Assembly (NCBI GenBank): GCA_030651475.1
Contig: JAUSEW010000027.1
Location: forward strand, 173,614 to 237,613
Direction of reading: 5' to 3'
From: Candidatus Levyibacteriota bacterium
GTDB lineage: Bacteria > Patescibacteriota > Microgenomatia > Levybacterales > UBA12049
DNA: 64,000 bases
The notes under the pieces were generated by a model. It worked only from the letters and a program-made list of their open reading frames with translations, did not search any database and was not told where the DNA came from. This document shows, piece by piece, positions 7,025 through 57,286 of the stretch. Position 1 is the stretch's first letter, and every line of letters starts with the position of its first letter. The translations under genes were made by a program, and so were the position numbers.

Positions 7025-8587
7025 TTACGCGCCAAACGCTTTTTTAAAGTCTAAAATTGATTTTTGCATTTCCTTAATTATTTCTTCAGAAGGTTTTTGT
7101 CCTGTCGAAAGAGACTCAATTATTTTCGGAAAGCTTCTTTTTACAAAGTCATGATATTCTGTTTCAAATTTTTCGAAAAGCTCAAGTTTTATGTCGTCCA
7201 AATACCCATTTGCAACTGCAAAAATGCTTAAAATTTCTAAACTTTCCTCAAGAGGATGATATTGTGGCTGTTTTAGGATTTCGATTGTTTTTTTCCCTCT
7301 TTCCAGCTGGGCTAATGTCGCAGGATCCAGTTCGCTTCCGAATTGAGCAAAAGCCGCCAATTCGTTATATTGCGCAAGCTCCAGTTTCATTTTTCCCGAA
7401 ACAGACTTAATTGCAGGCGTTTGGGCTGCTCCTCCAACTCTTGAAACAGAACTGCCTACATTGATTGCGGGTCTTATGCCATTATTAAATAAATCCTGTT
7501 GCAAATATATTTGCCCATCAGTAATAGAGATAACGTTAGTTGGAATATATGCGGAGATATCGTTGGCTTGAGTTTCTATAATTGGAAGCGCGGTTATAGA
7601 TCCGCCTCCGTTTTCTTTATTTAGCTTAACAGCTCTTTCCAAAAGTCTGCTGTGAAGATAGAATATATCTCCCGGATAAGCTTCTCTTCCTGCGGGACGT
7701 TTCAGAACCAGAGAGATTTGTCTATACGCCCACGCATGCTTAGTGAGGTCGTCATAAACAACTAGGACGTCTTTCCCCTTTTCCATAAAGTATTCGGCGA
7801 TTGCAGATCCGGCATATGGCGCAAGATATTGTAAGGACGGAGAGTCAGAGGCTCCTGCAGCAACAATTATTGAATACTCTAATGCACCCTCTTGGTCCAG
7901 CTTATCTATTACTTGGGCAATAGTGCTTTGTTTTTGTCCGATAGCAACATACACGCAGATTACTGGTTTTTGTTTTTTATTTCTTTCAGCCATAGGCTGA
8001 TCGGCCTTTGGCCGAGGTTTTTGATTGATTATGGTATCAATCGCGATAGCTGTTTTTCCGGTTTGTCTGTCGCCAATAATGAGCTCCCGTTGTCCTCGTC
8101 CTATTGGGATCAATGCATCTATCGCTTTTATTCCTGTTTTTAACGGTGTACTTACGGGTTCTCTGTCTACTACGCCTGCTGCAATTTTCTCAAGAGGCAT
8201 ATCTTTTCCCTTCTTAATCGTTGATTTGCCGTCCAGAGGTTCTCCTAAAGGATTTACAACTCTTCCGAGTATGTCATCGGATACGTTTATGCTTAGTATT
8301 TTCCCGGTTGTCTTTACAGTATCTCCCTCTTTGATGTCGTCGCTTTTACCCAGGGTCAATATTGCGACATTGTCTTCGTCTAGATTCAGCACCACGCCCA
8401 TCTTATTCTTATCGAAAGACACAAGCTCCCCCATAAATGTTTGGGATAATCCGGAAGCAACGATAACTCCGTCTGTATTTTTTTCGACTATTCCGACGTT
8501 TTGGGTTTTGGCGCTTCCCTGAAACATTGCCAGTCTTTCTTCGAGCTGTTTGATAATTGTATCAGCGTCAATCATATGCAAGACCAA
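7025..8587 (-). CDS. atpA: F-type ATP synthase alpha subunit
   Basis: Walker A GDRQTGKTAIA. Conserved SAYIPTNVISITDGQI region. Confidence 0.95.
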   Translation of the reverse strand: MVLHMIDADTIIKQLEERLAMFQGSAKTQNVGIVEKNTDGVIVASGLSQTFMGELVSFDKNKMGVVLNLDEDNVAILTLGKSDDIKEGDTVKTTGKILSINVSDDILGRVVNPLGEPLDGKSTIKKGKDMPLEKIAAGVVDREPVSTPLKTGIKAIDALIPIGRGQRELIIGDRQTGKTAIAIDTIINQKPRPKADQPMAERNKKQKPVICVYVAIGQKQSTIAQVIDKLDQEGALEYSIIVAAGASDSPSLQYLAPYAGSAIAEYFMEKGKDVLVVYDDLTKHAWAYRQISLVLKRPAGREAYPGDIFYLHSRLLERAVKLNKENGGGSITALPIIETQANDISAYIPTNVISITDGQIYLQQDLFNNGIRPAINVGSSVSRVGGAAQTPAIKSVSGKMKLELAQYNELAAFAQFGSELDPATLAQLERGKKTIEILKQPQYHPLEESLEILSIFAVANGYLDDIKLELFEKFETEYHDFVKRSFPKIIESLSTGQKPSEEIIKEMQKSILDFKKAFGA

Positions 8588-8918
8588 TATGGGTAGCGAT
8601 ATCTTCTAGGGTATTTTTTAAATCATGTTCATAAACAATGTCGTTATTTATAATCCTAACTCCGGCAATAAGGCTTGGGTCTTCTTTGTAGATAATTTTT
8701 TTACCTCTAAACATTTTATCAAATATCTTTTTATCAGTATACATGAAAGGCAAGTTTATTATAACCGTGTTTTCCTTCTCGTAACTTTTTAATACTTTTA
8801 CATATGCTTTCAAATCTTTTCTTGTCAATAATCTCGCTATCTTATTTACCCTAATGAGGTTTAGCTTTTTATGTACATAACTTAATAGAACCAGTTTTTT
8901 TATCTTCTTGATGTCCAT
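8568..8918 (-). CDS. atpH: F-type ATP synthase delta (OSCP) subunit, truncated to about 116 aa
   Basis: Operon position between atpF and atpA. C-terminal LIAGVRIINNDIVYEHDLKNTLEDI matches the delta C-terminal consensus. The N-terminal half of a typical delta is absent. Confidence 0.6.
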   Translation of the reverse strand: MDIKKIKKLVLLSYVHKKLNLIRVNKIARLLTRKDLKAYVKVLKSYEKENTVIINLPFMYTDKKIFDKMFRGKKIIYKEDPSLIAGVRIINNDIVYEHDLKNTLEDIATHIGLAYD

Positions 8919-19770: not shown

Positions 19771-20412
19771 TTATTCTGTGGGTACGTTGGTATTCAGGTT
19801 AGTAGTTTCCCGAGAGGATCTCTGAGGTGGTGCTTCAGTCATTATGATTTCTCCGGTCTCGATACCTTTTAGCCATTTTTCTACTAACGAATAATCGTTT
19901 TCTTTTATAGAGGAATCCATAAACACATTTATGATATCAGGTTTTATAGATATTCTAGGATGTCTACTCTTAAAGCCTCTCGGCGGAGGGTTTAAGCTTT
20001 CAGCCTCAACGATTTTTGTTCTTTTAACTCCTTGACCAGATTCGTTAAAAAGATATTGGATGTAGATTTTATAGATTTTTCCATCAACTCTATTTGTAAA
20101 AAGGAAGGGGAAGCTATTTAACGTTAGAGCATATAAGGGAGAATTAAGGGCATTTTTTGCCGAAATTTTAGGAAAACCATCATTTTTACTTTCTAAGACG
20201 AAGATGGCCGCAGGATCTCCTAAAAGTCTTCGATGGCTTAGGGTGGTAAGTATCATTACGTGTTTCCGATCGTTTCTCCCCTCCTGATTAAATAAGACTT
20301 TTAACCCACCTGCGATATTGCTGTTCCTGATTTTTTCAGCTTCAGAATGAGGCTCAAAAAAAGCACCTTGTTCTAATTCTGTTTTGGCACTTCCGTTTTC
20401 TGCCTTCGCCAT
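19771..20412 (-). CDS. hypothetical protein, no recognisable motif
   Basis: 213-aa ORF in the same strand block, with no TM segments and no identifiable signature. Confidence 0.4.
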   Translation of the reverse strand: MAKAENGSAKTELEQGAFFEPHSEAEKIRNSNIAGGLKVLFNQEGRNDRKHVMILTTLSHRRLLGDPAAIFVLESKNDGFPKISAKNALNSPLYALTLNSFPFLFTNRVDGKIYKIYIQYLFNESGQGVKRTKIVEAESLNPPPRGFKSRHPRISIKPDIINVFMDSSIKENDYSLVEKWLKGIETGEIIMTEAPPQRSSRETTNLNTNVPTE

Positions 20413-38383: not shown

Positions 38384-39547
38384 TCAATTTCTAAAAAGCC
38401 ACTTCATGAAAGATTTAATTATATTAAGCTCCGACGCGTATATCGTAGATACGTTACTTGAATCTTCGTGTAAAAATCTTTTTTTTGTCAGATTTTCTTC
38501 TTGGAGATTTTGATTATCTTGAACCAGTAATTTTCCCGGTAATGCCGGTTGTCCTTTATTTTTAGGAATCGCCTGGAAAGATTTATATTCTTCGTTGGGA
38601 TTATTATTTTTATCCAAAAAGGAAAATTGTAAAAATGGTTCAGCTTGAGCGCTAAACAAAAACGGTGTAACTGCTACTATACCATTATCTGACCAAACAT
38701 TGGTAAATGCATCCTTGTAAAAAGAAGCGGATACGTTATCCGAGATTTTGTTTTTGGACCAACCTGTTTCCGTAATAAATACCGGCAGAATTCTTCCCGA
38801 CAGACCATAAATCATATCCCTTTCATATCTAAAACTCGCTACGCCTGTAAGACTGTTACTCCTGGGACTTTGGCTAAATCCGGGGTTAGGATAAGCGTGA
38901 CTGGCGAATCCATCTATAGCGCTGAATATATTAGGATTTTCATCAGACATTCTTTTCAAAAACGTGTATTCGTTTATGCTTTCTTTGGAATTTTGGGCAG
39001 CATTATCAAGTCCTGCGGAGATAATAAAAAAATCCTGATTTCTTGATTTGAATGCAGATGCGGCAAAGTCAAGTATTTGGGCGTACTCTTGCGGACTTGA
39101 ACTGCCGCCCCATTCGTCGTTTCTGTTAGGTTCGTTAAATACGACAATATATCTATTTTTGATTGGCCAGTCCAAAGAGTTAAGAAAGTTTGCAAAATCA
39201 ACTACATCTTCCTCTGTAGGCTTTTGCCAAAATTTTGTTTGAAAATAGTCCCCGGCAGTAGCAAGACGTATTATTGGGATAAGATGCAAGCTAGCTGCTT
39301 TATCCATAAATTTCTGCCACTTCTCTAAATCTCTATCTCCCGCCTGAATGGGAATAGTCACATAGCCCCAATCTCCGCCTGTTGAATTAACAAGTCGTGA
39401 CGCATCGTCAATTTCGGAAGGGAACAAGATATGAATTCCAAATTTATTATTTTGACTTGCAAGAGGATCAACTACCGCATCTGCCACATTAACATTCAAA
39501 ACGGTTATTGTAATGGCTAAAATAGCAGCTAAAATTAATTTTTTCAT
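38384..39547 (-). CDS. secreted glycoside hydrolase, clan GH-A (GH5-like) TIM-barrel
   Basis: Signal peptide MKKLILAAILAITITVLNVNVADA. Acid/base VFNEPN and nucleophile FITETGW motifs. Confidence 0.6.
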   Translation of the reverse strand: MKKLILAAILAITITVLNVNVADAVVDPLASQNNKFGIHILFPSEIDDASRLVNSTGGDWGYVTIPIQAGDRDLEKWQKFMDKAASLHLIPIIRLATAGDYFQTKFWQKPTEEDVVDFANFLNSLDWPIKNRYIVVFNEPNRNDEWGGSSSPQEYAQILDFAASAFKSRNQDFFIISAGLDNAAQNSKESINEYTFLKRMSDENPNIFSAIDGFASHAYPNPGFSQSPRSNSLTGVASFRYERDMIYGLSGRILPVFITETGWSKNKISDNVSASFYKDAFTNVWSDNGIVAVTPFLFSAQAEPFLQFSFLDKNNNPNEEYKSFQAIPKNKGQPALPGKLLVQDNQNLQEENLTKKRFLHEDSSNVSTIYASELNIIKSFMKWLFRN

Positions 39548-41964: not shown

Positions 41965-42522
41965 TTAAGCTATTCCGGCCTTCTTTGATCTTTGCAGAAT
42001 TTCCAAAAATGATATTACGGCAAGTAAGGACATTGCCAAGAACAAATATTCAAAACCAAGCTTTGCGACAATTAATCCTCCTAACATAGTTCCTACAGCA
42101 GTAACAATGTTTGCAATTAGCCTCCAATCGGCATATTCCTGAACATGATGGTTTTTATCTAAGTGTTCTGCGAAAATTGCACTAAACGATGGCGATCCCA
42201 AAGCCTCGCCAATACCTAAAAATATCTGTAGAGCTATTAATTGAGGTATGTTACCGACGAATATATAACTTAACCAAACAATCGCTCTTACTATAAAACT
42301 TGCCATAAGCATGTCATCTTTTCGTATTTTGTCACCAACACGGGAAATTAAAAATGTGAATAGTGTAGTTGAGATAAGAAATGCTGTCCAGGATATGCTT
42401 ATTGCTAAAACTCCATCTGCAAATTTCTGGACAAACACGGCATATAAAGGGCCTAGGAGGCTGTCTGCGAATACGAAAATTCCATTAGATATAAATAAAA
42501 TTTTAAGCGCTCCGTCTTTCAT
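41965..42522 (-). CDS. half-size (6-TM) MFS-like transporter protein
   Basis: MFS motif-A-like loop SRVGDKIRKDDML between TM2 and TM3. Only 185 aa, with no partner half adjacent. Confidence 0.4.
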   Translation of the reverse strand: MKDGALKILFISNGIFVFADSLLGPLYAVFVQKFADGVLAISISWTAFLISTTLFTFLISRVGDKIRKDDMLMASFIVRAIVWLSYIFVGNIPQLIALQIFLGIGEALGSPSFSAIFAEHLDKNHHVQEYADWRLIANIVTAVGTMLGGLIVAKLGFEYLFLAMSLLAVISFLEILQRSKKAGIA

Positions 42523-42618: not shown

Positions 42619-43785
42619 ATGGAGCCACTAAAACTTACATATCCGCTAGGTCTAACTTTCGATGATGTTCTTCTCGTTCCAGGTTATTCGGATTTTACCC
42701 GTTCCGACATAAACCTTTCTACTCAACTTACAAAAAAAATAAAACTATCAATTCCTCTTGTTTCAGCACCTATGGATACGGTTACGGAAAGTAAGCTTGC
42801 GATTGCCCTCGCAGAGTTGGGAGGCATAGGCATTATTCACAGAAACCTAACCGTAGGGGATCAAGTAAAAGAAGTCAAAATTGTAAAAAGCACCCATTCG
42901 GCAAGCTCAGGGCAAGCGCTTCTTGTGGGAGCGGCGATTGCGGGAAAAAATTTCGAGGAAAGAACAAAAGCTTTGCTTCATGCACAAGTAGACGTTGTTG
43001 TTATTGACTCTGCTCATGGCTTCACGAAAACAATTATTGAAGCTGTGAAATTTCTCAAAAAGAAATATCCAAAACTTGAAATTATTGCAGGAAACGTGGC
43101 AACATACGACGGAGCTATAGGACTAATAAAGGCGGGGGTGGACGGACTAAGGGTTGGTATGGGACCGGGCGCAATTTGTACAACAAGGATAATTTCAGGC
43201 ATGGGGGTACCTCAAATAACAGCAATAATGGAAACATCTAGGATTGCAAAAAAGCTTGGGGTTCCTATTATTGCAGATGGAGGAATTAAATATTCCGGTG
43301 ATATCGTAAAAGCATTAGCTGCAGGCGCATCAACCGTAATGATGGGAAGTTTTTTTGCGTCAGCTCTTGAAGCTCCGGGAAAAATAGTTAAACTTAATGA
43401 AAAACAAGTTCCTCATAGGTTTAGAAGTGTTTTTAAAACAGCGAAAAACAAATATATTTTCAAGGAGTATAGGGGTATGGGATCGGTTGGCGCGATGGAA
43501 AAAGGAACGAAGATAAAATCAGAAGAGGAATTCCATGGGAAAGATTACGGCGATAGAATTTTAGTTGCAGAGGGAGTCGAGGGCTTGGTTCCCATAAAAG
43601 GAACCGTTAATGAAATTGTTAGTCAAGTATTGGGGGGGATAAGATCAGGTATGTCCTATGTTGGGGCAATCAATATTAAAGAGCTTTGGAAAAAAGCCCG
43701 TTTTATTAGGATAACACAGGCTTCTTTGATAGAAAGCCATCCCCATGATATTCTGATTACAAATCCTGGAAAAAACTATGCGTAA
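42619..43785 (+). CDS. guaB: IMP dehydrogenase lacking the CBS subdomain
   Basis: Catalytic loop [19 protein letters not shown]. 388 aa with no CBS pair. Followed by guaA. Confidence 0.85.
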
Positions 43786-43790
43786 GCTTT

Positions 43791-45317
43791 ATGATATTTG
43801 TTGTTGATTTCGGTTCCCAAACCTCACATTTAATTGCAAGGCGCATAAAGGGTTTCGGAGTTTTAACAAAAATTGTTAATCCGCAAGAAGCATATAGAAG
43901 AATAAAGGAGGAAAAACCTCAAGGTATTATCCTTTCCGGAGGCCCATCATCTGTTTATCAGAAAAAATCCCCAACAATAAATAAAGAGATATTTGATTTA
44001 CGAATTCCCATTCTCGGAATTTGTTATGGATTCCAATTGGCTACGAGCCTTTTGGGCGGTAAGGTAATACCAGGCAAGAAGGAGTATGGTCCTGCGTCAC
44101 TAAAAATGGGAAATGGGAAATGGGAAATGGGAAATAAACTGCCGCAGCAGTTTACCGTCTGGATGTCACACGGCGATGAGGTGATTGAATTACCTAAAGG
44201 TTTTAAGGTGATTGGTTCATCCGACGGGGTACCTTTTGCATTCGTGGGAAATGAAGAAAAGAAAATCTACGGAGTTCAATTCCACCCGGAAGTTGAACAT
44301 ACGGAATACGGTTCACGGATTCTCAAGAATTTCATTAATCTTTGCGACGCGAAAATACAAAAAAGAGAAATTGACATAGAAAAAATACAAAATAAAATAA
44401 AAGAAGAAGTTGGCAGTTCGTATGCCATAGGCGCGGTTTCAGGAGGAGTTGATTCGACAGTTGTCGCAGTTTTAGTTGCAAAAATAATTGGTAAAAAATT
44501 TATCCCCATTTACGTTGATAACGGTTTGATGAGACCAAAAACAGACGTATACATTAAAAAGATTTTCAAAAGCCTAAGCATTAAACCCATCATTGTAAAC
44601 GTAAGAAAAGAAATGCTAAAACTCCTAAAAGGGGTTACAGATTCGGAACAAAAACGTAAAATTATAGGGAATTTTTATATCAGAATTTTTGAAAAGGAAA
44701 TGCGTAAGCAGATAAAAAAGGGCAACGATGTGAGATTTTTGCTGCAAGGAACCATCTATTCTGATGTTATAGAAAGTCAAGGAACAAAACATTCGGCAAA
44801 AATAAAAAGCCACCATAATGTCGGAGGATTACCTAAAAAGATGAAATTGAAATTACTCGAGCCAATGAGGAGTTTTTACAAAGATGAGGTTAGGGAAATA
44901 GGAAGGAAGCTAGGTTTACCCGAAGAATTTATTAACAAGCAGCCTTTTCCGGGTCCTGGTTTTGCAGTTAGGATTAGGGGAGAGGTCACAAGAAAAAGAT
45001 TGGAAATGGAGAAAAAAGCGGATGAGATAGTGCTGTCGGAGCTAGAAAAGACGGGAATTTTGCAAAATGTTTTTTTGTCATTTCCTGTTTTGACAAACGC
45101 GTTTTCAACGGCTGTAAAAGGGGACGGAAGGAATTTTGGTGAGGTTGTTGCCATAAGAATAGTTGAATCAAAAGATATAATGACATCAACATGGGCACGC
45201 ATTCCCTATGATTTGATGCAAAAAATTTCAAGCAGAATTGTTAATGAAGTCGAAGGAGTTTCCCGAGTCGTCTACGATATTACTACCAAACCTCCGGCAA
45301 CAATGGAGTGGGAATAG
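43791..45317 (+). CDS. guaA: GMP synthase (glutamine-hydrolysing)
   Basis: GATase GICYGFQ...HPE. ATP-PPase SGGVDSTV. Canonical C-terminus ...TMEWE. Confidence 0.95.
   Translation: MIFVVDFGSQTSHLIARRIKGFGVLTKIVNPQEAYRRIKEEKPQGIILSGGPSSVYQKKSPTINKEIFDLRIPILGICYGFQLATSLLGGKVIPGKKEYGPASLKMGNGKWEMGNKLPQQFTVWMSHGDEVIELPKGFKVIGSSDGVPFAFVGNEEKKIYGVQFHPEVEHTEYGSRILKNFINLCDAKIQKREIDIEKIQNKIKEEVGSSYAIGAVSGGVDSTVVAVLVAKIIGKKFIPIYVDNGLMRPKTDVYIKKIFKSLSIKPIIVNVRKEMLKLLKGVTDSEQKRKIIGNFYIRIFEKEMRKQIKKGNDVRFLLQGTIYSDVIESQGTKHSAKIKSHHNVGGLPKKMKLKLLEPMRSFYKDEVREIGRKLGLPEEFINKQPFPGPGFAVRIRGEVTRKRLEMEKKADEIVLSELEKTGILQNVFLSFPVLTNAFSTAVKGDGRNFGEVVAIRIVESKDIMTSTWARIPYDLMQKISSRIVNEVEGVSRVVYDITTKPPATMEWE
44108..44135 (+). 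repeat. tandem heptanucleotide repeat (GGGAAAT)x4 inside the guaA coding sequence
   Basis: Seen directly. Encodes the insertion MGNGKWEMGNK in the GATase domain. Confidence 0.8.
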
Positions 45318-45320
45318 AAA
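45294..45320 (+). repeat. direct repeat copy A: the last 8 codons plus stop of guaA (CCGGCAACAATGGAGTGGGAATAGAAA)
   Basis: About 27/29 nt identical to copy B at 47036-47064. Confidence 0.8.
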
Positions 45321-45377
45321 CTTGAAAACACATTTAATTTCTCTTATACTTACGCTGCGTTAAAATTATTTACATTT

Positions 45378-47030
45378 ATGCCAGAAAGACGGTCAGAACA
45401 TATCATTCCCCAAGACGTTGATCAAGAAAATAAACAGGGTTCTTCTTTCCGAACTACAGATATTCTCAGCGTGGCACGAGCGCTTTGGCCTGATAGAGTT
45501 GTAATTAAGTTTGGAGAAAGAAACATTACGTATGAAACTCTCTATGAAAAGTCTACTAAAATAGCTCATGGTTTGTCTAAAATTGGAGTTGGGCGTGGCG
45601 ATCGAGTTGCGATGCTGTCAGGGAATTCTCCCGAATATATACAAGCATATTTTGCAACAGCTTTACTTGGAGCGGAATTCGTTCCACTTAATTTTAGAAG
45701 TAAACATGATCAGCTAACTTATATGCTTAATATTGTACATGCAAAAGTATTGCTTTATGCAGATCGAAATAGACAAGACGCTCAGGCTATAAGAAAAGAT
45801 ATTAATCCAAATATACAATATGTTTCCCTTGGAACAGACATGGAGAAAAAACTAGAAGGAGAATTAAGCTATCAAGATTTCATTAACCAGGAGGAAGCAG
45901 ATGAAATTAATGATCCAAACGGAACAGATGAAGATGTAACAGTTATTATGTTTACGTCTGGAACCACGTCGTTTCCAAAGGCTGTCGAACAACAACATAG
46001 AAGTTTTACTGAGTTACTTTCGTTTCCAGAAGATCTTGAAAAACAGGAAACCATTCTTATAACAACGCCACTTTTCCATGTAGCTGCTTTGCAAGGAGTA
46101 TTTTCGTCTATCGCAGAAGGCCGAACCATGGTGCTTCTTCCGGACATTAAACCAGAGAGTTTATTGCAAGCACTTGCTAACGGCGTACAACGCGCAACAC
46201 TTGTTCCAACACAAATAGAGCAAATTATTAGTCACCCAGATTTTCCCAAACATGATTTAAGTAATCTTAGGCAAATAACCTATGGTGGATCTCAAATGCC
46301 TCTCAATGTAATTCTTGAAGCAATAAAAAAATTATCACAAGTGTCATTCGTAAGGGCGTATGGATTAACAGAAACAGGAGGAACGGTTGCTGTGTTGGGT
46401 TCAGAAGCCCACAAAATAACAGGACATGAAACAGAAGCAGAGCTACGGAAAAAGCAATACGTGCTTACCTATGGAATTGGAAAGCCAATAGAGGGAGTAA
46501 AGATAACAATCGTTGATGATGCAGGGAACGAGATCCCTCCGCGAGAGGATGAAAACGGTGGAGAATTAGGACGGATAACAATTAGAACAAATCGAGTCAT
46601 GAAGGGATATCTCGGTAGGCAGAAAGAGACAAAAGATATTCTTGATGGAAACACGTTAACTACTAGTGATCTTGGGTGGATTGACAATGAAGGAAATGTT
46701 TACTGTATGGGAAGGGCTGACGATATGATAATACGTGGCGGAGAAAAAATTCCACCCGCAGAAGTTGAAACGATACTTTTAGGTAATCCTGAAATTGCTG
46801 ATGCAGGAGTAATTGGGATTTCAGACAATGAATGGGGGCAAGCTGTCGCAGCTGTTATTGTGCTCAATACAGGAAGCAAGGCTACTCAACAGGAAATTAT
46901 TGAATTTTGCAGAGAAAGACTTGGGAGTTCGAAATCTCCAGCTAGAATCATATTTACCAAAGAACTTCCCAGGAATGCTATGGGAAAATTAGTGCGTAAA
47001 GACCTCCAAAGATTATTCGTATCCTCTTAA
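45378..47030 (+). CDS. AMP-dependent synthetase/ligase (acyl-CoA synthetase family)
   Basis: AMP-binding motifs IMFTSGTTSFPKAV, YGLTETGG, GWIDNEGNVYCMGRADDMI, GEKI. Confidence 0.9.
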   Translation: MPERRSEHIIPQDVDQENKQGSSFRTTDILSVARALWPDRVVIKFGERNITYETLYEKSTKIAHGLSKIGVGRGDRVAMLSGNSPEYIQAYFATALLGAEFVPLNFRSKHDQLTYMLNIVHAKVLLYADRNRQDAQAIRKDINPNIQYVSLGTDMEKKLEGELSYQDFINQEEADEINDPNGTDEDVTVIMFTSGTTSFPKAVEQQHRSFTELLSFPEDLEKQETILITTPLFHVAALQGVFSSIAEGRTMVLLPDIKPESLLQALANGVQRATLVPTQIEQIISHPDFPKHDLSNLRQITYGGSQMPLNVILEAIKKLSQVSFVRAYGLTETGGTVAVLGSEAHKITGHETEAELRKKQYVLTYGIGKPIEGVKITIVDDAGNEIPPREDENGGELGRITIRTNRVMKGYLGRQKETKDILDGNTLTTSDLGWIDNEGNVYCMGRADDMIIRGGEKIPPAEVETILLGNPEIADAGVIGISDNEWGQAVAAVIVLNTGSKATQQEIIEFCRERLGSSKSPARIIFTKELPRNAMGKLVRKDLQRLFVSS

Positions 47031-47035
47031 TCCAC

Positions 47036-47064
47036 CCGGCAACAATGGAATGGGAATAAGAAAT
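47036..47064 (+). repeat. direct repeat copy B: non-coding duplicate of the guaA 3' end (CCGGCAACAATGGAATGGGAATAAGAAA), which would encode PATMEWE-stop
   Basis: Seen directly. Lies just after the ligase stop codon. Confidence 0.8.
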
Positions 47065-48402
47065 TTACTCCTTGTTTTTAGAAGAAATTAGTCCTGTTCG
47101 CTTGAATGCAACATCGATATTTTTAAGATAGAAGCTTGGATCGAAAAGTTCGGTAATTTGGTCCTGCTTCAGAAGTCTTGCGATTTTTATATTGTCCGAC
47201 ACGAGCTTAGTTAATGGAGTTTCCGTATCTATTGCCTTTTGAGAAAGTTCTTTTACTAACTCATAAGCTTCCGTCCTTGAAATCTTTTGGGTTTCTAGTA
47301 AAACATTCAACAAGCGAGAGCTATAAATAGCCCCGTGTGTTTTGTCCATATTCTTGACCATCCTATCTGCATTTACTACTAATCCGTCCATAACAAGTGT
47401 TGTTAGCTTAGCTGCGTAAGATAAGCACCCAAATAAATCAGGGTAGACAAAACGTTCACTTGATGAATGACTAATATCTCGCTCAAGCCATGTTATAGCT
47501 GTGTCTAACTCTGTTGCAACTTTTTCCCTAACCTCCCGATTTAATCCTACGACACGCTCTGTTAATTCCGTGTTCCTTTTATGGGGCATTGCGCTTGATC
47601 CTTGTTGATCTTTTGGGTCAAAAGGCTCTCGTACTTCGCCTATATCAGTCATACCCAGAAGCCTAATGTTTGTGGCAATTCGGGCAAGCGTTGTTCCGTT
47701 TATCCCCATTAAGGCGACCACTTCTGCGTGCCGATCACGACTGATAATTTGAGTTGGTGCTTCGTCCGGTTTTAGACCTAATTTGGCTAGTGCTTCTTCC
47801 TCCAATTCCGGAGAGATAAATACATGAGTTCCGATCTCGCCAGACAATTTTCCAAAAGCAATTACTTTTTTAGCACGATCAATTCTTTCAATTCCGCGTT
47901 TTACTTCCGCATACCATCCCACAATTTGACGACCAAAAGTTTGAGGTATTGCATGTTGACCGTGTGTTCTTCCAATCTGCAACGTTTCCTTATGTTTAAG
48001 CGCAAGTTTTTTTAAAGATTTTCCCAATTGATCAAAATCATTCCCTACGATATTCAAAGATTCTATTATTTGCAAGGAAAGGCTTGTATCCAGTACGTCG
48101 GAACTGGTGTTTCCTAAATGAATAAAATTTCCTGCTTCAGGAGAAAGTTTAGTTTGAACTTTTCGAAGTAATTTATTCGTTTCGTGCCCTTTTGCTTCAT
48201 TAAGAGCTATTATGTCCTTGGGAGTTAGCTCTAAAGCAGCGAGAATTTGTTTTAATTGTCTTGCCGTTGGCTTACCATAAAGTTCGTGTCTGGCTTCACT
48301 TTGGGCTTCCCAAATTTTAGCTTGAGCCCGAAAATACCCCTCCGGTTCCCAAACTTTTATCATATCGGGAACTTGCCCTGCATAACGTTTTGGTAATGGC
48401 AT
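47065..48402 (-). CDS. purB: adenylosuccinate lyase
   Basis: Fumarate-lyase signature GSSAMPHKRN. Adjacent to purA. Confidence 0.9.
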   Translation of the reverse strand: MPLPKRYAGQVPDMIKVWEPEGYFRAQAKIWEAQSEARHELYGKPTARQLKQILAALELTPKDIIALNEAKGHETNKLLRKVQTKLSPEAGNFIHLGNTSSDVLDTSLSLQIIESLNIVGNDFDQLGKSLKKLALKHKETLQIGRTHGQHAIPQTFGRQIVGWYAEVKRGIERIDRAKKVIAFGKLSGEIGTHVFISPELEEEALAKLGLKPDEAPTQIISRDRHAEVVALMGINGTTLARIATNIRLLGMTDIGEVREPFDPKDQQGSSAMPHKRNTELTERVVGLNREVREKVATELDTAITWLERDISHSSSERFVYPDLFGCLSYAAKLTTLVMDGLVVNADRMVKNMDKTHGAIYSSRLLNVLLETQKISRTEAYELVKELSQKAIDTETPLTKLVSDNIKIARLLKQDQITELFDPSFYLKNIDVAFKRTGLISSKNKE

Positions 48403-48420
48403 ATTTTTACTTACACAATG

Positions 48421-49803
<1,383 letters not shown>

Positions 49804-49830: not shown

Positions 49831-50271
49831 ATGGCAGAACGTAAAGAAAAATCAACAATTCCAGGCTATGTATCTCGTATTATATACGACGAAGTAGTAA
49901 GACGCGAACTAGATGAAAATAAATCAGCTACGCTTCTTAGGGCGGAAAATATTGGACTGAAAAAGACTTTAGGGAATATTGAACGCACAGCTGTAGACAT
50001 AGGTCTAATTGGATTTTGGAAAAAAAGGAGACTATTAGAAGACACTCAAGCAAGAAATAGTTTGGGTGAAGTAGGATATACAGCACGACTAAGAGAAGCA
50101 GAAGAACAACTCCATGCAGCGCGAAGGATTTATGCGCTTTTAAAACCAAACGATAGCTTAGGCCAAATTTACAATAAAAGCGTAAAACTTGCCTTGGAAG
50201 TAAGTAAATCACTTGACGCTAAAACCCCAGCAGATATAGGAGTATCTCAAGCACAAGTCTTCAAACGATAA
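49831..50271 (+). CDS. hypothetical protein (146 aa, helical, no motif)
   Basis: Isolated plus-strand ORF. No recognisable signature. Confidence 0.35.
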   Translation: MAERKEKSTIPGYVSRIIYDEVVRRELDENKSATLLRAENIGLKKTLGNIERTAVDIGLIGFWKKRRLLEDTQARNSLGEVGYTARLREAEEQLHAARRIYALLKPNDSLGQIYNKSVKLALEVSKSLDAKTPADIGVSQAQVFKR

Positions 50272-55849: not shown

Positions 55850-56479
55850 TTATTCAAGAGAAATATCAATACCTCTTAAAAGATCGTTGAATTTGTCTTT
55901 AGCTATTTTTTCCCGCTCTTTTTCGTCTGGAGCCAATTTTATTGGCAAATCACTACCCACCTCAAAGAACTTAAAGGTTCTTAAAAAAGCAGGATGTGCT
56001 TCGGGAGTTACATGGGATTGGATGTTGCCTTCTACGACTTGCAATATTGTTATCTTCATCTCCCTAATCCTTTTCATGAATTCTTCTTGCGTCATTGGCG
56101 GCTTAAGCATTCCTTTTCTTGAAAATCCCTTTGGCAAAAAAGGTGATTTAGTTCTATCACGCATCCAAGCAAAAACAACTAAAGCGTGACGAGTTGCTTC
56201 TCTTGTCTCCAAATCAACATCTGTATGGGATTGCTTTTGATCATCGTAGAGAACGGCTGATCCTTCTTCTGCTCTCGTTAGGTAAGATTGAAAAGTGTAG
56301 TCACGAAAATATTCTTTTGCTGGCCCAGGCTTACGAATTACACCTTTATTAAAAAGTTCTAGGAGAGCATTCGTCTGTTTTACAACAATCCAAGGAGATT
56401 TCTCAAACTCCCTATAACCAATTATTGGCTGAAACTCCGGGGATTGAGGCGCAGAAAATCTTCTTTCAAATTCTAGCAT
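55850..56479 (-). CDS. hypothetical protein C (209 aa) in the elevated-GC block
   Basis: ORF with its own upstream TTGACA element and the 14-bp palindrome. No motif. Confidence 0.4.
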   Translation of the reverse strand: MLEFERRFSAPQSPEFQPIIGYREFEKSPWIVVKQTNALLELFNKGVIRKPGPAKEYFRDYTFQSYLTRAEEGSAVLYDDQKQSHTDVDLETREATRHALVVFAWMRDRTKSPFLPKGFSRKGMLKPPMTQEEFMKRIREMKITILQVVEGNIQSHVTPEAHPAFLRTFKFFEVGSDLPIKLAPDEKEREKIAKDKFNDLLRGIDISLE

Positions 56480-56581: not shown

Positions 56582-57286
56582 TTATTTCGTAAAACTATCT
56601 GATCCTACAACCATAGTTTTAAATTCCGTTAGAGTGTCTATTGCCCCGCTAAGAGACCTAAACCCAACTACGCTTGATCGAACCGGATCAATTTGAGATA
56701 TTCCCCTGATAGGTAACTCTCTAGGCCCCTCCGGGAATTTCCCCCTTCTCCACAAAGGATTTGAATTTTCATTAAACGCCAAAGTTGCAGATGCCAGGAC
56801 TTCCCCTCCCAATGCGACAAGCGGAATTATAGTCCAGCCAATTCTTGAAAGCGGAACTTTAGAGGCTATTATGCCAAATTCCACTTTATTCCTTTTGCTT
56901 TCGTCCATATACCATCGTTCTTCTTCTCTCGGATTTTGCCAGTGGATGGAAGTTGTTCCCGAAGGCCACATTTTTATTTCTATTGCCAAATCTCCATAAG
57001 AACCACTCCATTTCAGGCAACATTGATTAGATTCGCTCCTTTGGATGTATTTCTTGCCGAGACCGAATAATTTTCTAGACAAAAACTGACCTGTTGGTAA
57101 AATATCCTGATTGCTTATCTGTTCTTTTAAGCGATAGTCTTCTATATATACTATCTTATTTCCTGCTGTTTCTACCATAGGCGTTAAATTGGATTTATAC
57201 TTGCGGGGCTTTATTTGTATCTGTTTGCTTCCATAACCTAAAAATCCTACTGGCAAGTGTCCTACTTTGTTCACCCGTAAAAACAC
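56582..57286 (-). CDS. hypothetical protein B. The ORF overlaps protein A by 92 nt in another frame. An alternative start at MVETAGNK (57178) removes the overlap
   Basis: ORF. A hydrophobic segment IIPLVALGGEVLASATLAF is present. No motif. Confidence 0.35.
   Translation of the reverse strand: MFLRVNKVGHLPVGFLGYGSKQIQIKPRKYKSNLTPMVETAGNKIVYIEDYRLKEQISNQDILPTGQFLSRKLFGLGKKYIQRSESNQCCLKWSGSYGDLAIEIKMWPSGTTSIHWQNPREEERWYMDESKRNKVEFGIIASKVPLSRIGWTIIPLVALGGEVLASATLAFNENSNPLWRRGKFPEGPRELPIRGISQIDPVRSSVVGFRSLSGAIDTLTEFKTMVVGSDSFTK

Follow-up and report, generated by a model that had tools for sequence, protein, structure and literature searches.

How does a single metabolic gene come to lie between two copies of the end of a housekeeping gene? 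The question is raised by a locus in Candidatus Levyibacteriota bacterium, a member of the Levybacteria in the Candidate Phyla Radiation (CPR; Patescibacteria), within a stretch of 64,000 nt that we analysed as a whole and refer to as the window (contig JAUSEW010000027.1, assembly GCA_030651475.1, positions 173,614–237,613 of the forward strand). Here a gene for an acyl/aryl-CoA ligase follows guaA, which encodes glutamine-hydrolysing GMP synthase, and is itself followed by a second version of the last guaA codons. An earlier note, made by inspection of the window, had read this arrangement as the signature of site-specific integration. Comparison with related loci indicates that it very probably represents an insertion polymorphism bounded by repeats of the guaA 3' end (the guaA tail), which is the point of recombination on both sides of a compact, promoter-bearing cassette that encodes no recombinase.

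The repeat and the segment between its copies

The target gene, guaA (43,791–45,317, forward strand, 508 aa), is intact, scoring 645.8 bits against the equivalog model NF000848 (cutoff 400) and containing the Pfam domains GATase and GMP_synt_C. Its functional end, consisting of the last seven codons and the TAG stop, forms copy 1 of the repeat (CCGGCAACAATGGAGTGGGAATAG, 45,294–45,317, forward strand), which resembles the left attachment site (attL) of an integrated element. The attR-like copy 2 (CCGGCAACAATGGAATGGGAATAA, 47,036–47,059, forward strand) begins 5 nt downstream of the ligase stop codon and ends 5 nt short of the stop of purB, the convergent adenylosuccinate lyase gene on the right flank (47,065–48,402, reverse strand, stop at 47,065–47,067; TIGR00928, 346.9 bits, cutoff 326.2). 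It is out of frame with the ligase and, as the earlier note had described it, non-coding. The two copies are identical at 22 of 24 positions without gaps, and the repeat finder extends the match to 26 of 30; both mismatches (GAG/GAA and TAG/TAA) are silent in the guaA frame. The duplication around the ligase reported earlier is therefore real, while the identity of 27/29 given for it requires one gap and bases past the stop codon. Since those bases are not part of the repeat in other lineages, the repeat ends at the stop. The encoded C-terminus, ...TKPPATMEWE, is common to 13 of the 15 related loci compared, with M replaced by I or V in two.

The shortness of the repeat is the one point that could favor a chance match or an assembly artefact next to an ordinary resident ligase gene. 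However, allowing up to three mismatches, the 24-mer occurs at two sites only in the 64 kb, where 100 shuffles give an expectation of 0.00, and the degenerate pattern P-A-T-M-E-W-E-stop finds those same two sites. Of all genes in the window, guaA is alone in having a downstream duplicate of its last 24 nt. Window positions 44,106–47,902 are matched without a difference by locus L110, from an independent Logan assembly of SRR13727527, which excludes an artefact of assembly, and the same architecture recurs in three other lineages from other samples while relatives have empty sites. These observations refute chance and artefact, an explanation we consider vanishingly improbable.

The start-to-start spacing of the copies sets the inserted segment at 1,742 bp on the forward strand (45,318–47,059, or 45,294–47,035, depending on where in the repeat the crossover is placed). 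A leader of 60 nt (45,318–45,377, forward strand) separates guaA from the ligase and holds a sigma-70-like promoter matching the consensus at 10 of 12 positions, with TTGAAA at 45,322–45,327, a 17-nt spacer and TATACT at 45,345–45,350. The cargo, and sole gene of the insert, is the ligase itself (45,378–47,030, forward strand, 550 aa, stop codon 47,028–47,030); 34 nt lie between its stop and purB. Its domains, PF00501 (9e-69) and PF13193 (8e-19), place it in the ANL superfamily of class I adenylate-forming enzymes. The best NCBIfam match, the long-chain-fatty-acid-CoA ligase subfamily NF004837, gives 392 bits, under its cutoff of 476, and no NCBIfam equivalog cutoff is reached. The nearest solved structures, all full-length matches, are fatty-acyl/feruloyl-CoA synthetases (8weu/8wev) and FadD13 (3r44). 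The protein is identical to a database entry (P0001) named by NCBI 'class I adenylate-forming enzyme family protein [Candidatus Levybacteria bacterium]'; exact-protein look-ups of the window guaA and purB found no record.

The borders of the insert were searched for features of other mobile elements. No terminal inverted repeats were found and no inverted repeat joins the two borders. Folding of 47,010–47,090 gave −4.1 and −3.6 kcal/mol on the two strands, no better than shuffled sequences (z-scores 0.25–0.85), so that neither a hairpin, a terminator nor an attC site is indicated at copy 2, and no terminator-like sites were found at the insert junctions. An insertion sequence (IS) or transposon with target-site duplication was rejected given the lack of a transposase and of an inverted repeat joining the borders; in addition, the duplicates differ at 2 of 24 positions and it is copy 2, not copy 1, that matches the native tail (see below).

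Base composition offers no mark of foreign origin. The ligase is, as noted earlier, somewhat GC-richer than its surroundings (0.396 against a gene mean of 0.365 ± 0.027, z +1.1), although this holds only weakly, and the excess lies at codon positions 1 and 2, as in guaB and purB. GC at third codon positions (GC3) is below average (0.265 vs 0.305, z −1.2) and codon usage is typical of the window, with a codon-usage distance ranking 20th of 25 among genes of at least 350 aa. A foreign composition of the ligase was therefore rejected.

Empty and occupied sites in related Levybacteria

The earlier note had proposed aligning the guaA–purB junction of relatives, where a single tail without a ligase would confirm insertion. 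This was found in four loci. The three nearest relatives by purB all lack the ligase: in L111 (a Logan contig, purB 84% identical to the window at the amino acid level) guaA with one tail copy leads to the purB 3' end; in L112 (GCA_016186645.1, 79%) one tail copy is followed by a 47-nt spacer and the purB 3' end; and in L001 (71%) 1 nt separates the single tail from the purB 3' end. L002, with a different purB type, likewise has one tail copy, 1 nt and the purB 3' end. Because these relatives pass from guaA to purB with a single tail, the ligase segment has been inserted, with the guaA 3' end duplicated at its two borders. The window and L001 agree in the residue position at which purB ends, and guaA remains full length after insertion. 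The cassette-like acquisition named as one option in the earlier note fits this arrangement.

The empty sites also indicate which copy is native. The junction in L111 reads ...AAACCCCCGGCAACAATGGAATGGGAATAA-GAAAT-TTA, the last triplet being the purB stop, and window positions 47,035–47,067 (copy 2, GAAAT and the purB stop) are identical to this real guaA tail and its flank over 33 nt. By this identity, copy 2 is the native guaA end of the window lineage, left beside purB. Copy 1 departs from the native tail of L111 solely at its distal end (GAG and TAG vs GAA and TAA), which is the part contiguous with the cassette leader. These distal differences fit a supply of the distal part of copy 1 by incoming DNA.

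Occupied sites were found by protein search, which returned a tight clade of five ligases (P0001–P0005) with 65–76% identity (90% between P0003 and P0004). Next come three CPR outgroups at 53–56%, in unrelated contexts and with no flanking repeats (none round the ligases of L022, L026 and L027), and beyond these identity is at most 45% (Deltaproteobacteria/Thermodesulfobacteriota, Chloroflexi). When metagenome contigs were scanned with the ligase alignment, no additional close copy turned up; the matches were the 56% outgroup and distant FadD-like genes.

Four further loci, whose ligases are 65–76% identical at the amino acid level, bring to five the lineages that carry the compact promoter and ligase unit at the guaA end. 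In L021 and L025 the guaA end is followed by a promoter-bearing leader and the ligase; past the stop, L021 reads TAA-ttttctt-CCGCAACAATGGAATGGGAATAA and L025 reads TAG-tgt-CCGCAACAATGGAGTGGGAATGA, each running into A-rich sequence. The L024 contig starts inside the leader and ends just past TAG-tgt-CCGCGACAATGGAATGGGAATGA. Leaders in these three loci carry TTGACA-N17/18-TATTAT at the corresponding place. The guaA-tail copy lies 3–7 nt past the ligase stop in all three, and the geometry of the unit is held across lineages (leader 57–123 nt, ligase stop to copy 2 3–7 nt). The A-rich sequence past copy 2 in L021 and L025 resembles that after the real guaA stop in the ligase-less L015 and L112. 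One sample, SRR22387933, yields both the empty L111 and the occupied L025, which is of a different lineage.

L020 has the guaA end, the same leader as the window with identical promoter hexamers and spacing, and the ligase, but no copy 2 before the purB 3' end. Here a 61-nt deletion between TTAATCC and TTAGTCC, a microhomology, removed copy 2 and substituted the last purB codons, so that the purB frame now terminates within the antisense 3' end of the ligase (L020:1736–1760, aligned to window 47,028–47,092; …KRSGLRGYK followed by the stop). Since L020 deleted it, copy 2 is dispensable to the host.

Two sequence motifs recur past the guaA end in these loci. A periodic A-tract motif (e.g., CATAAACTAAAAATGAAAAATGAAAAGTGAAAAATTGA) occurs past the guaA stop or copy 2 at L112:7339–7385, in L015 after 7620, in L021 after 2397, in L025 after 2111 and in L004 after 4595, and is missing from the window, L111 and L001; bent DNA and a common intergenic signal are possible interpretations. 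A GTCATCCTGAGCRAAGCGAAGGATC-like repeat element stands directly past the guaA stop in L013 (after 4534), L016 (after 6233) and L006 (after 5954).

Separate histories of cassette and host

The distribution of the cassette, judged by these sequences, is discordant with the host phylogeny. A tree of the C-terminal 221 aa of guaA joins the window to the ligase-less L001 (93% bootstrap) and then to L002 (100%), and places the cassette-bearing L021 among the ligase-less L004, L006 and L015. The L020 host is the most distant from the window on its purB fragment (47% amino acid identity vs 79%, 75% and 64% for L111, L112 and L001) and also on the available 49 nt of guaA, yet its ligase is the closest to that of the window. 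Identity of these two ligases at 4-fold sites is 0.71, and purB of the window and its nearest empty relative falls below this at 0.63. Between cassette lineages, 4-fold-site distances are 0.70–0.93 for the ligase vs 1.4–1.7 for guaA of the same hosts (Fisher p 0.015, 0.18 and 0.042). The comparison of ligase and host phylogenies proposed in the earlier note gives histories that disagree, far from a picture in which all relatives carry the ligase and the trees are concordant.

Could a single ancient insertion in a Levybacteria ancestor, inherited vertically, have produced this pattern? Patchiness would then reflect independent precise deletions between the 24-bp repeats, and copy 2 would be kept by gene conversion. 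Direct repeats are known to promote precise deletion, which here would restore a perfect guaA/purB junction, and the ligase is compositionally native in GC3 and codon usage. The lack of further close copies in the metagenome scan means that the cassette is not abundant. Also on this side, and at odds with repeated gain, the ratio of cassette to host synonymous distance is about 0.5 in every comparison; a gene-specific rate is compatible with so constant a ratio, so that cassettes might look younger than they are through slower synonymous change in the ligase. However, vertical inheritance requires at least five independent precise losses (L111, L112, L001, L002 and the L004/L006/L015 group) vs about three gains, and does not sit well with the L020 host being the most distant on purB while its ligase is the closest. 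It also conflicts with the fact that copy 2 of the window matches the L111 tail rather than copy 1.

The state of copy 2 bears further on this alternative. Being dispensable, it should have decayed under vertical inheritance. Instead, across lineages it is identical at 19–21 of 21 nt, whereas ligase 4-fold sites in the same comparison are just 49–57% identical; by our own arithmetic, the probability of 21/21 at 0.54 per site is about 2e-6. Its three variable positions (the third base of the Ala codon, the third base of a Glu codon and the second base of the stop) all preserve the guaA reading or the stop, with a chance of about 0.015 under random placement among the 21. The two copies in L025 disagree at 5 of 23 positions although copy 2 still spells a perfect tail, and its conservation is therefore not due to simple conversion by copy 1. 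Translation of copy 2 by read-through from the ligase was rejected because its frame varies (+2 in the window, L024 and L025; in frame in L021). Copy 2 does not behave as neutral DNA, and such conservation is expected if it has been re-formed repeatedly from real guaA tails by recombination. Taken with the trees, these features make a single ancient insertion followed by losses quite improbable.

The left side of the insertion can also be placed. Host guaA retains the synonymous pattern of its own lineage right up to the repeat in the window, L021 and L025, which locates the left crossover in or very near the 24-bp repeat. No donor-like tract was detected in guaA beside the cassette, though guaA is mosaic farther upstream.

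Routes of insertion at the guaA tail

The 3' end of guaA is an integration site in other bacteria. Tyrosine integrases of GIsul2-type islands use a 19-bp att site there, with the core GAGTGGGA that corresponds to the E-W-E codons, and the GIsul2 integrase also excises and integrates the att-flanked CR2-sul2 unit, which is not mobilised by its own gene products (PMC9376610). Integrative and mobilizable elements (IMEs) at the guaA 3' end are known in Actinobacteria and in Alpha- and Gammaproteobacteria, such as ATE-1 of Trueperella and the Brucella IncP island (PMC5704250). Copy 1 of the window contains GAGTGGGA and copy 2 contains GAATGGGA, although the likeness may just reflect the conserved E-W-E codons. 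As with GIsul2, insertion is into the guaA 3' end with the gene left intact and direct repeats that contain the core, and CR2-sul2 (Gamma/Betaproteobacteria) offers a precedent for an att-flanked sub-unit driven by the island's integrase. GIsul2 differs in being about 15 kb and in carrying its own tyrosine integrase with replication and transfer-related genes next to attL. The cassette has one cargo gene in 1.7 kb, a repeat of 23–26 bp and a CPR host, and no tyrosine integrase gene was found inside it next to the att-like copies or elsewhere in the 64 kb.

Elements that are flanked by att sites and lack an integrase are defined as cis-mobilizable elements (CIMEs; PMC5704250). The cassette resembles the CIMEs of streptococci in its attL/attR-like copies at the 3' end of a conserved gene, its lack of integration and transfer genes and, presumably with these, a dependence on the integrase of another element. 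CIMEs are, however, described as decayed integrative and conjugative elements (ICEs) or IMEs, often in tandem with a functional element (PMC5704250), whereas the cassette contains no remnants and has no tandem partner. The identical minimal unit of promoter and gene in all five lineages, without gene remnants, argues for a cassette rather than for independent decay, and so the decayed integrative element offered as an option in the earlier note has no support. The cassette works like a guaA-targeting integrative element or CIME, but it has neither an integrase in cis nor signs of decay.

Integron gene cassettes are similar in being single-gene mobile units of about 1–2 kb that lack a recombinase of their own and are placed at a specific site by an enzyme in trans. 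They are usually promoterless, and their attC site is an imperfect palindrome that folds as a hairpin. The unit described here has its own promoter, no attC-like hairpin at copy 2 and no integron integrase or attI platform nearby, and its recombination site is a copy of the end of a housekeeping gene. An integron gene cassette was rejected on these grounds.

We tentatively favor movement of the cassette at the guaA tail by a site-specific recombinase acting in trans. One reciprocal crossover of the Campbell type, within the last ~24 bp of guaA, would have placed the 1,742-bp cassette in the chromosome, and guaA stays complete since the arriving DNA would have brought its own version of the tail as a replacement 3' end. 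After insertion, copy 1 would have a non-native distal end (GAG...TAG) running into the leader, and the original tail would be left non-coding by purB. Using the guaA tail as an attachment site, the cassette would have been gained, and probably lost, repeatedly in several divergent Levybacteria. Since it encodes no recombinase, the enzyme would be a guaA-tail-specific tyrosine recombinase encoded elsewhere, on another element, a phage or a plasmid, and its attP would be a CCNGCNACNATGGARTGGGARTRR-like sequence located away from the end of any guaA open reading frame (ORF). A circular intermediate of 1,742 bp is predicted, with the junction ligase 3' end, TAATCCA, one tail copy and the AAACTTGAAAAC leader. 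We infer the Campbell-type topology, the circular intermediate and the identity of the enzyme from the layout of the locus and from the movement of integrase-less, att-flanked units by enzymes from elsewhere (CR2-sul2, PMC9376610; CIMEs, PMC5704250).

Several observations count against a trans-acting recombinase. As the earlier note had remarked, the ligase is the only gene of the insert, and a Pfam scan covering the insert and all 58 window ORFs of at least 90 aa detected no integrase, recombinase or transposase. None was found among the genes directly downstream of guaA in nine relatives, which are purB (two types), purM, purC, ino1 with lysR, and a hydrolase. The site-specific integration read from the window earlier is a possibility, and its enzyme would have to come from outside these neighborhoods. 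A circulating helper element specific to guaA might be expected to leave other tail-bounded insertions, and none besides the ligase cassettes was found in 27 loci (~20 with Levybacteria-type guaA). A scan of viral contigs for the tail motif GCNACNATGGARTGGGARTRR, as a phage attP, gave two matches, neither with similarity to guaA, the ligase or purB, and by eye no dyad symmetry is obvious in the 24-mer. The flanks of L020, L021, L024 and L025 are known from short contigs of 1.8–2.4 kb. Finally, guaA and purB are mosaic among lineages, so ordinary homologous recombination is active at the locus.

The mosaic is visible in opposite nearest relatives for the two genes. The window guaA is 83% identical to L001 and 68% to L112 in nucleotides, and purB is 79% identical to L112 and 71% to L001 in amino acids; along guaA, identity between the window and L001 varies from 0.64 to 0.93. 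On these identities, the purine cluster (window 43,791–48,402) is a recombination mosaic with a breakpoint near the guaA/purB junction. In different relatives, the convergent position behind guaA is filled by one of two types of adenylosuccinate lyase, a short ADSL_C type (window 47,065–48,402, L001, L111, L112) and a long ASL_C type (L002:2802–4217, L004:6646–8052, L008:2576–4174), and L001 and L002 have the junction ATTATTTTTTC in common despite their different purB types. In L004, a myo-inositol-1-phosphate synthase gene and a LysR regulator lie between guaA and purB without tail repeats (L004:4630–6636) and are a second, different insertion at this junction.

Recombination by the host is accordingly the other route to be weighed. 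No dedicated recombinase would be needed if DNA taken up by competent Levybacteria were installed by RecA-dependent or homology-facilitated illegitimate recombination (HFIR), with the guaA tail as a short, near-universal homology. Installation might proceed by a single crossover with a circularised fragment, or with the tail as right anchor (a portable homology arm) and guaA as left arm, and loss by recombination between the 24-bp copies or replacement by an empty allele. Experiments in Saccharibacteria have demonstrated that members of the CPR can be naturally competent and integrate DNA by homology (PMC10633639). The mosaic locus and the lack of a recombinase nearby are in keeping with such a route, which also accounts for a copy 2 that is host-like and varies at silent positions only. 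However, long-arm recombination would usually leave a donor tract, and guaA is lineage-specific up to the tail in the window, L021 and L025. For efficient action, RecA usually requires homology at least as long as these mismatched 24 bp. The origin of the first duplication is not explained, and the left edge of copy 2 is at one position in all lineages, which also fits a defined site. We regard host recombination, in either form and for loss as for gain, as a possible explanation, only a little less likely than a recombinase in trans.

In HFIR, as described in Acinetobacter and Streptococcus pneumoniae, foreign DNA is installed beside a conserved anchor gene with very short homology on the other side. 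An anchor gene and a short homology are likewise present here, and CPR are competent (PMC10633639). HFIR is sporadic and is not known to leave a conserved, reusable repeat, whereas here the short homology travels with the cassette and is maintained. Carried to its end, this comparison would make the cassette a recombinase-free, self-targeting mobile gene, with the carried ~24-bp guaA tail as portable homology, installed and removed in competent CPR by host recombination only and finding one safe site in any relative, irrespective of the sequence beyond guaA; we think this unlikely, both for the mechanism and for the choice of site.

Genomic setting and significance

Apart from the cassette, the window is a housekeeping region (ATP synthase, dnaE, gatCAB, murT/gatD, pyr genes, pyrG, uvrB, lexA, eno, cysS). 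The purine cluster is flanked by guaB (42,619–43,785, forward strand, 388 aa) and purA (48,421–49,770, reverse strand). Two stretches of GuaB match IMP dehydrogenase models, as would be expected if the CBS (Bateman) insert had been lost. Upstream, a 185-aa ORF (41,965–42,522, reverse strand) that is 94% conserved in L001 matches only the N-terminal half of MFS_1 (profile positions 1–166 of 347) and may be a truncated transporter gene. Six ORFs of 116–387 aa have no Pfam match at E ≤ 1e-5 (8,568–8,918; 19,771–20,412; 38,384–39,547; 55,850–56,479; 56,582–57,286; and, at the default 1e-3, 49,831–50,271). Among the relatives, the metagenome-assembled genome binchicken_co38_456, labelled Gammaproteobacteria, contains two different Levybacteria-type guaA loci, L002 (CAZYIC010000047) and L015 (CAZYIC010000002), 77% and 67% identical to the window, and is probably a mixed or mislabelled bin.

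To our knowledge, very little is known of how the small genomes of CPR/Patescibacteria acquire accessory genes. In the Levybacteria, the 3' end of guaA receives one metabolic gene that behaves as a separate, insertable module, and related uncultivated organisms show cleanly occupied or empty versions of the site. Use of the guaA tail for attachment, known from Proteobacteria and Actinobacteria, is thereby extended to CPR, in an unusually small case made up of a promoter, one gene, one copy of the site and no enzyme. If a recombinase acts in trans, the cassette points to an undiscovered guaA-specific element in Levybacteria. If host recombination acts on a carried homology arm, the cassette would exemplify a simple means by which genes in general can spread and would offer CPR engineering a safe-site design ready for use, and a self-targeting cassette would add to integrons, IS elements and integrase-bearing islands a separate and minimal kind of gene mobility. 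CPR organisms are often without fatty-acid synthesis, and we speculate that the cargo, an acyl-CoA or acyl-carrier ligase, could matter for the scavenging of lipids.

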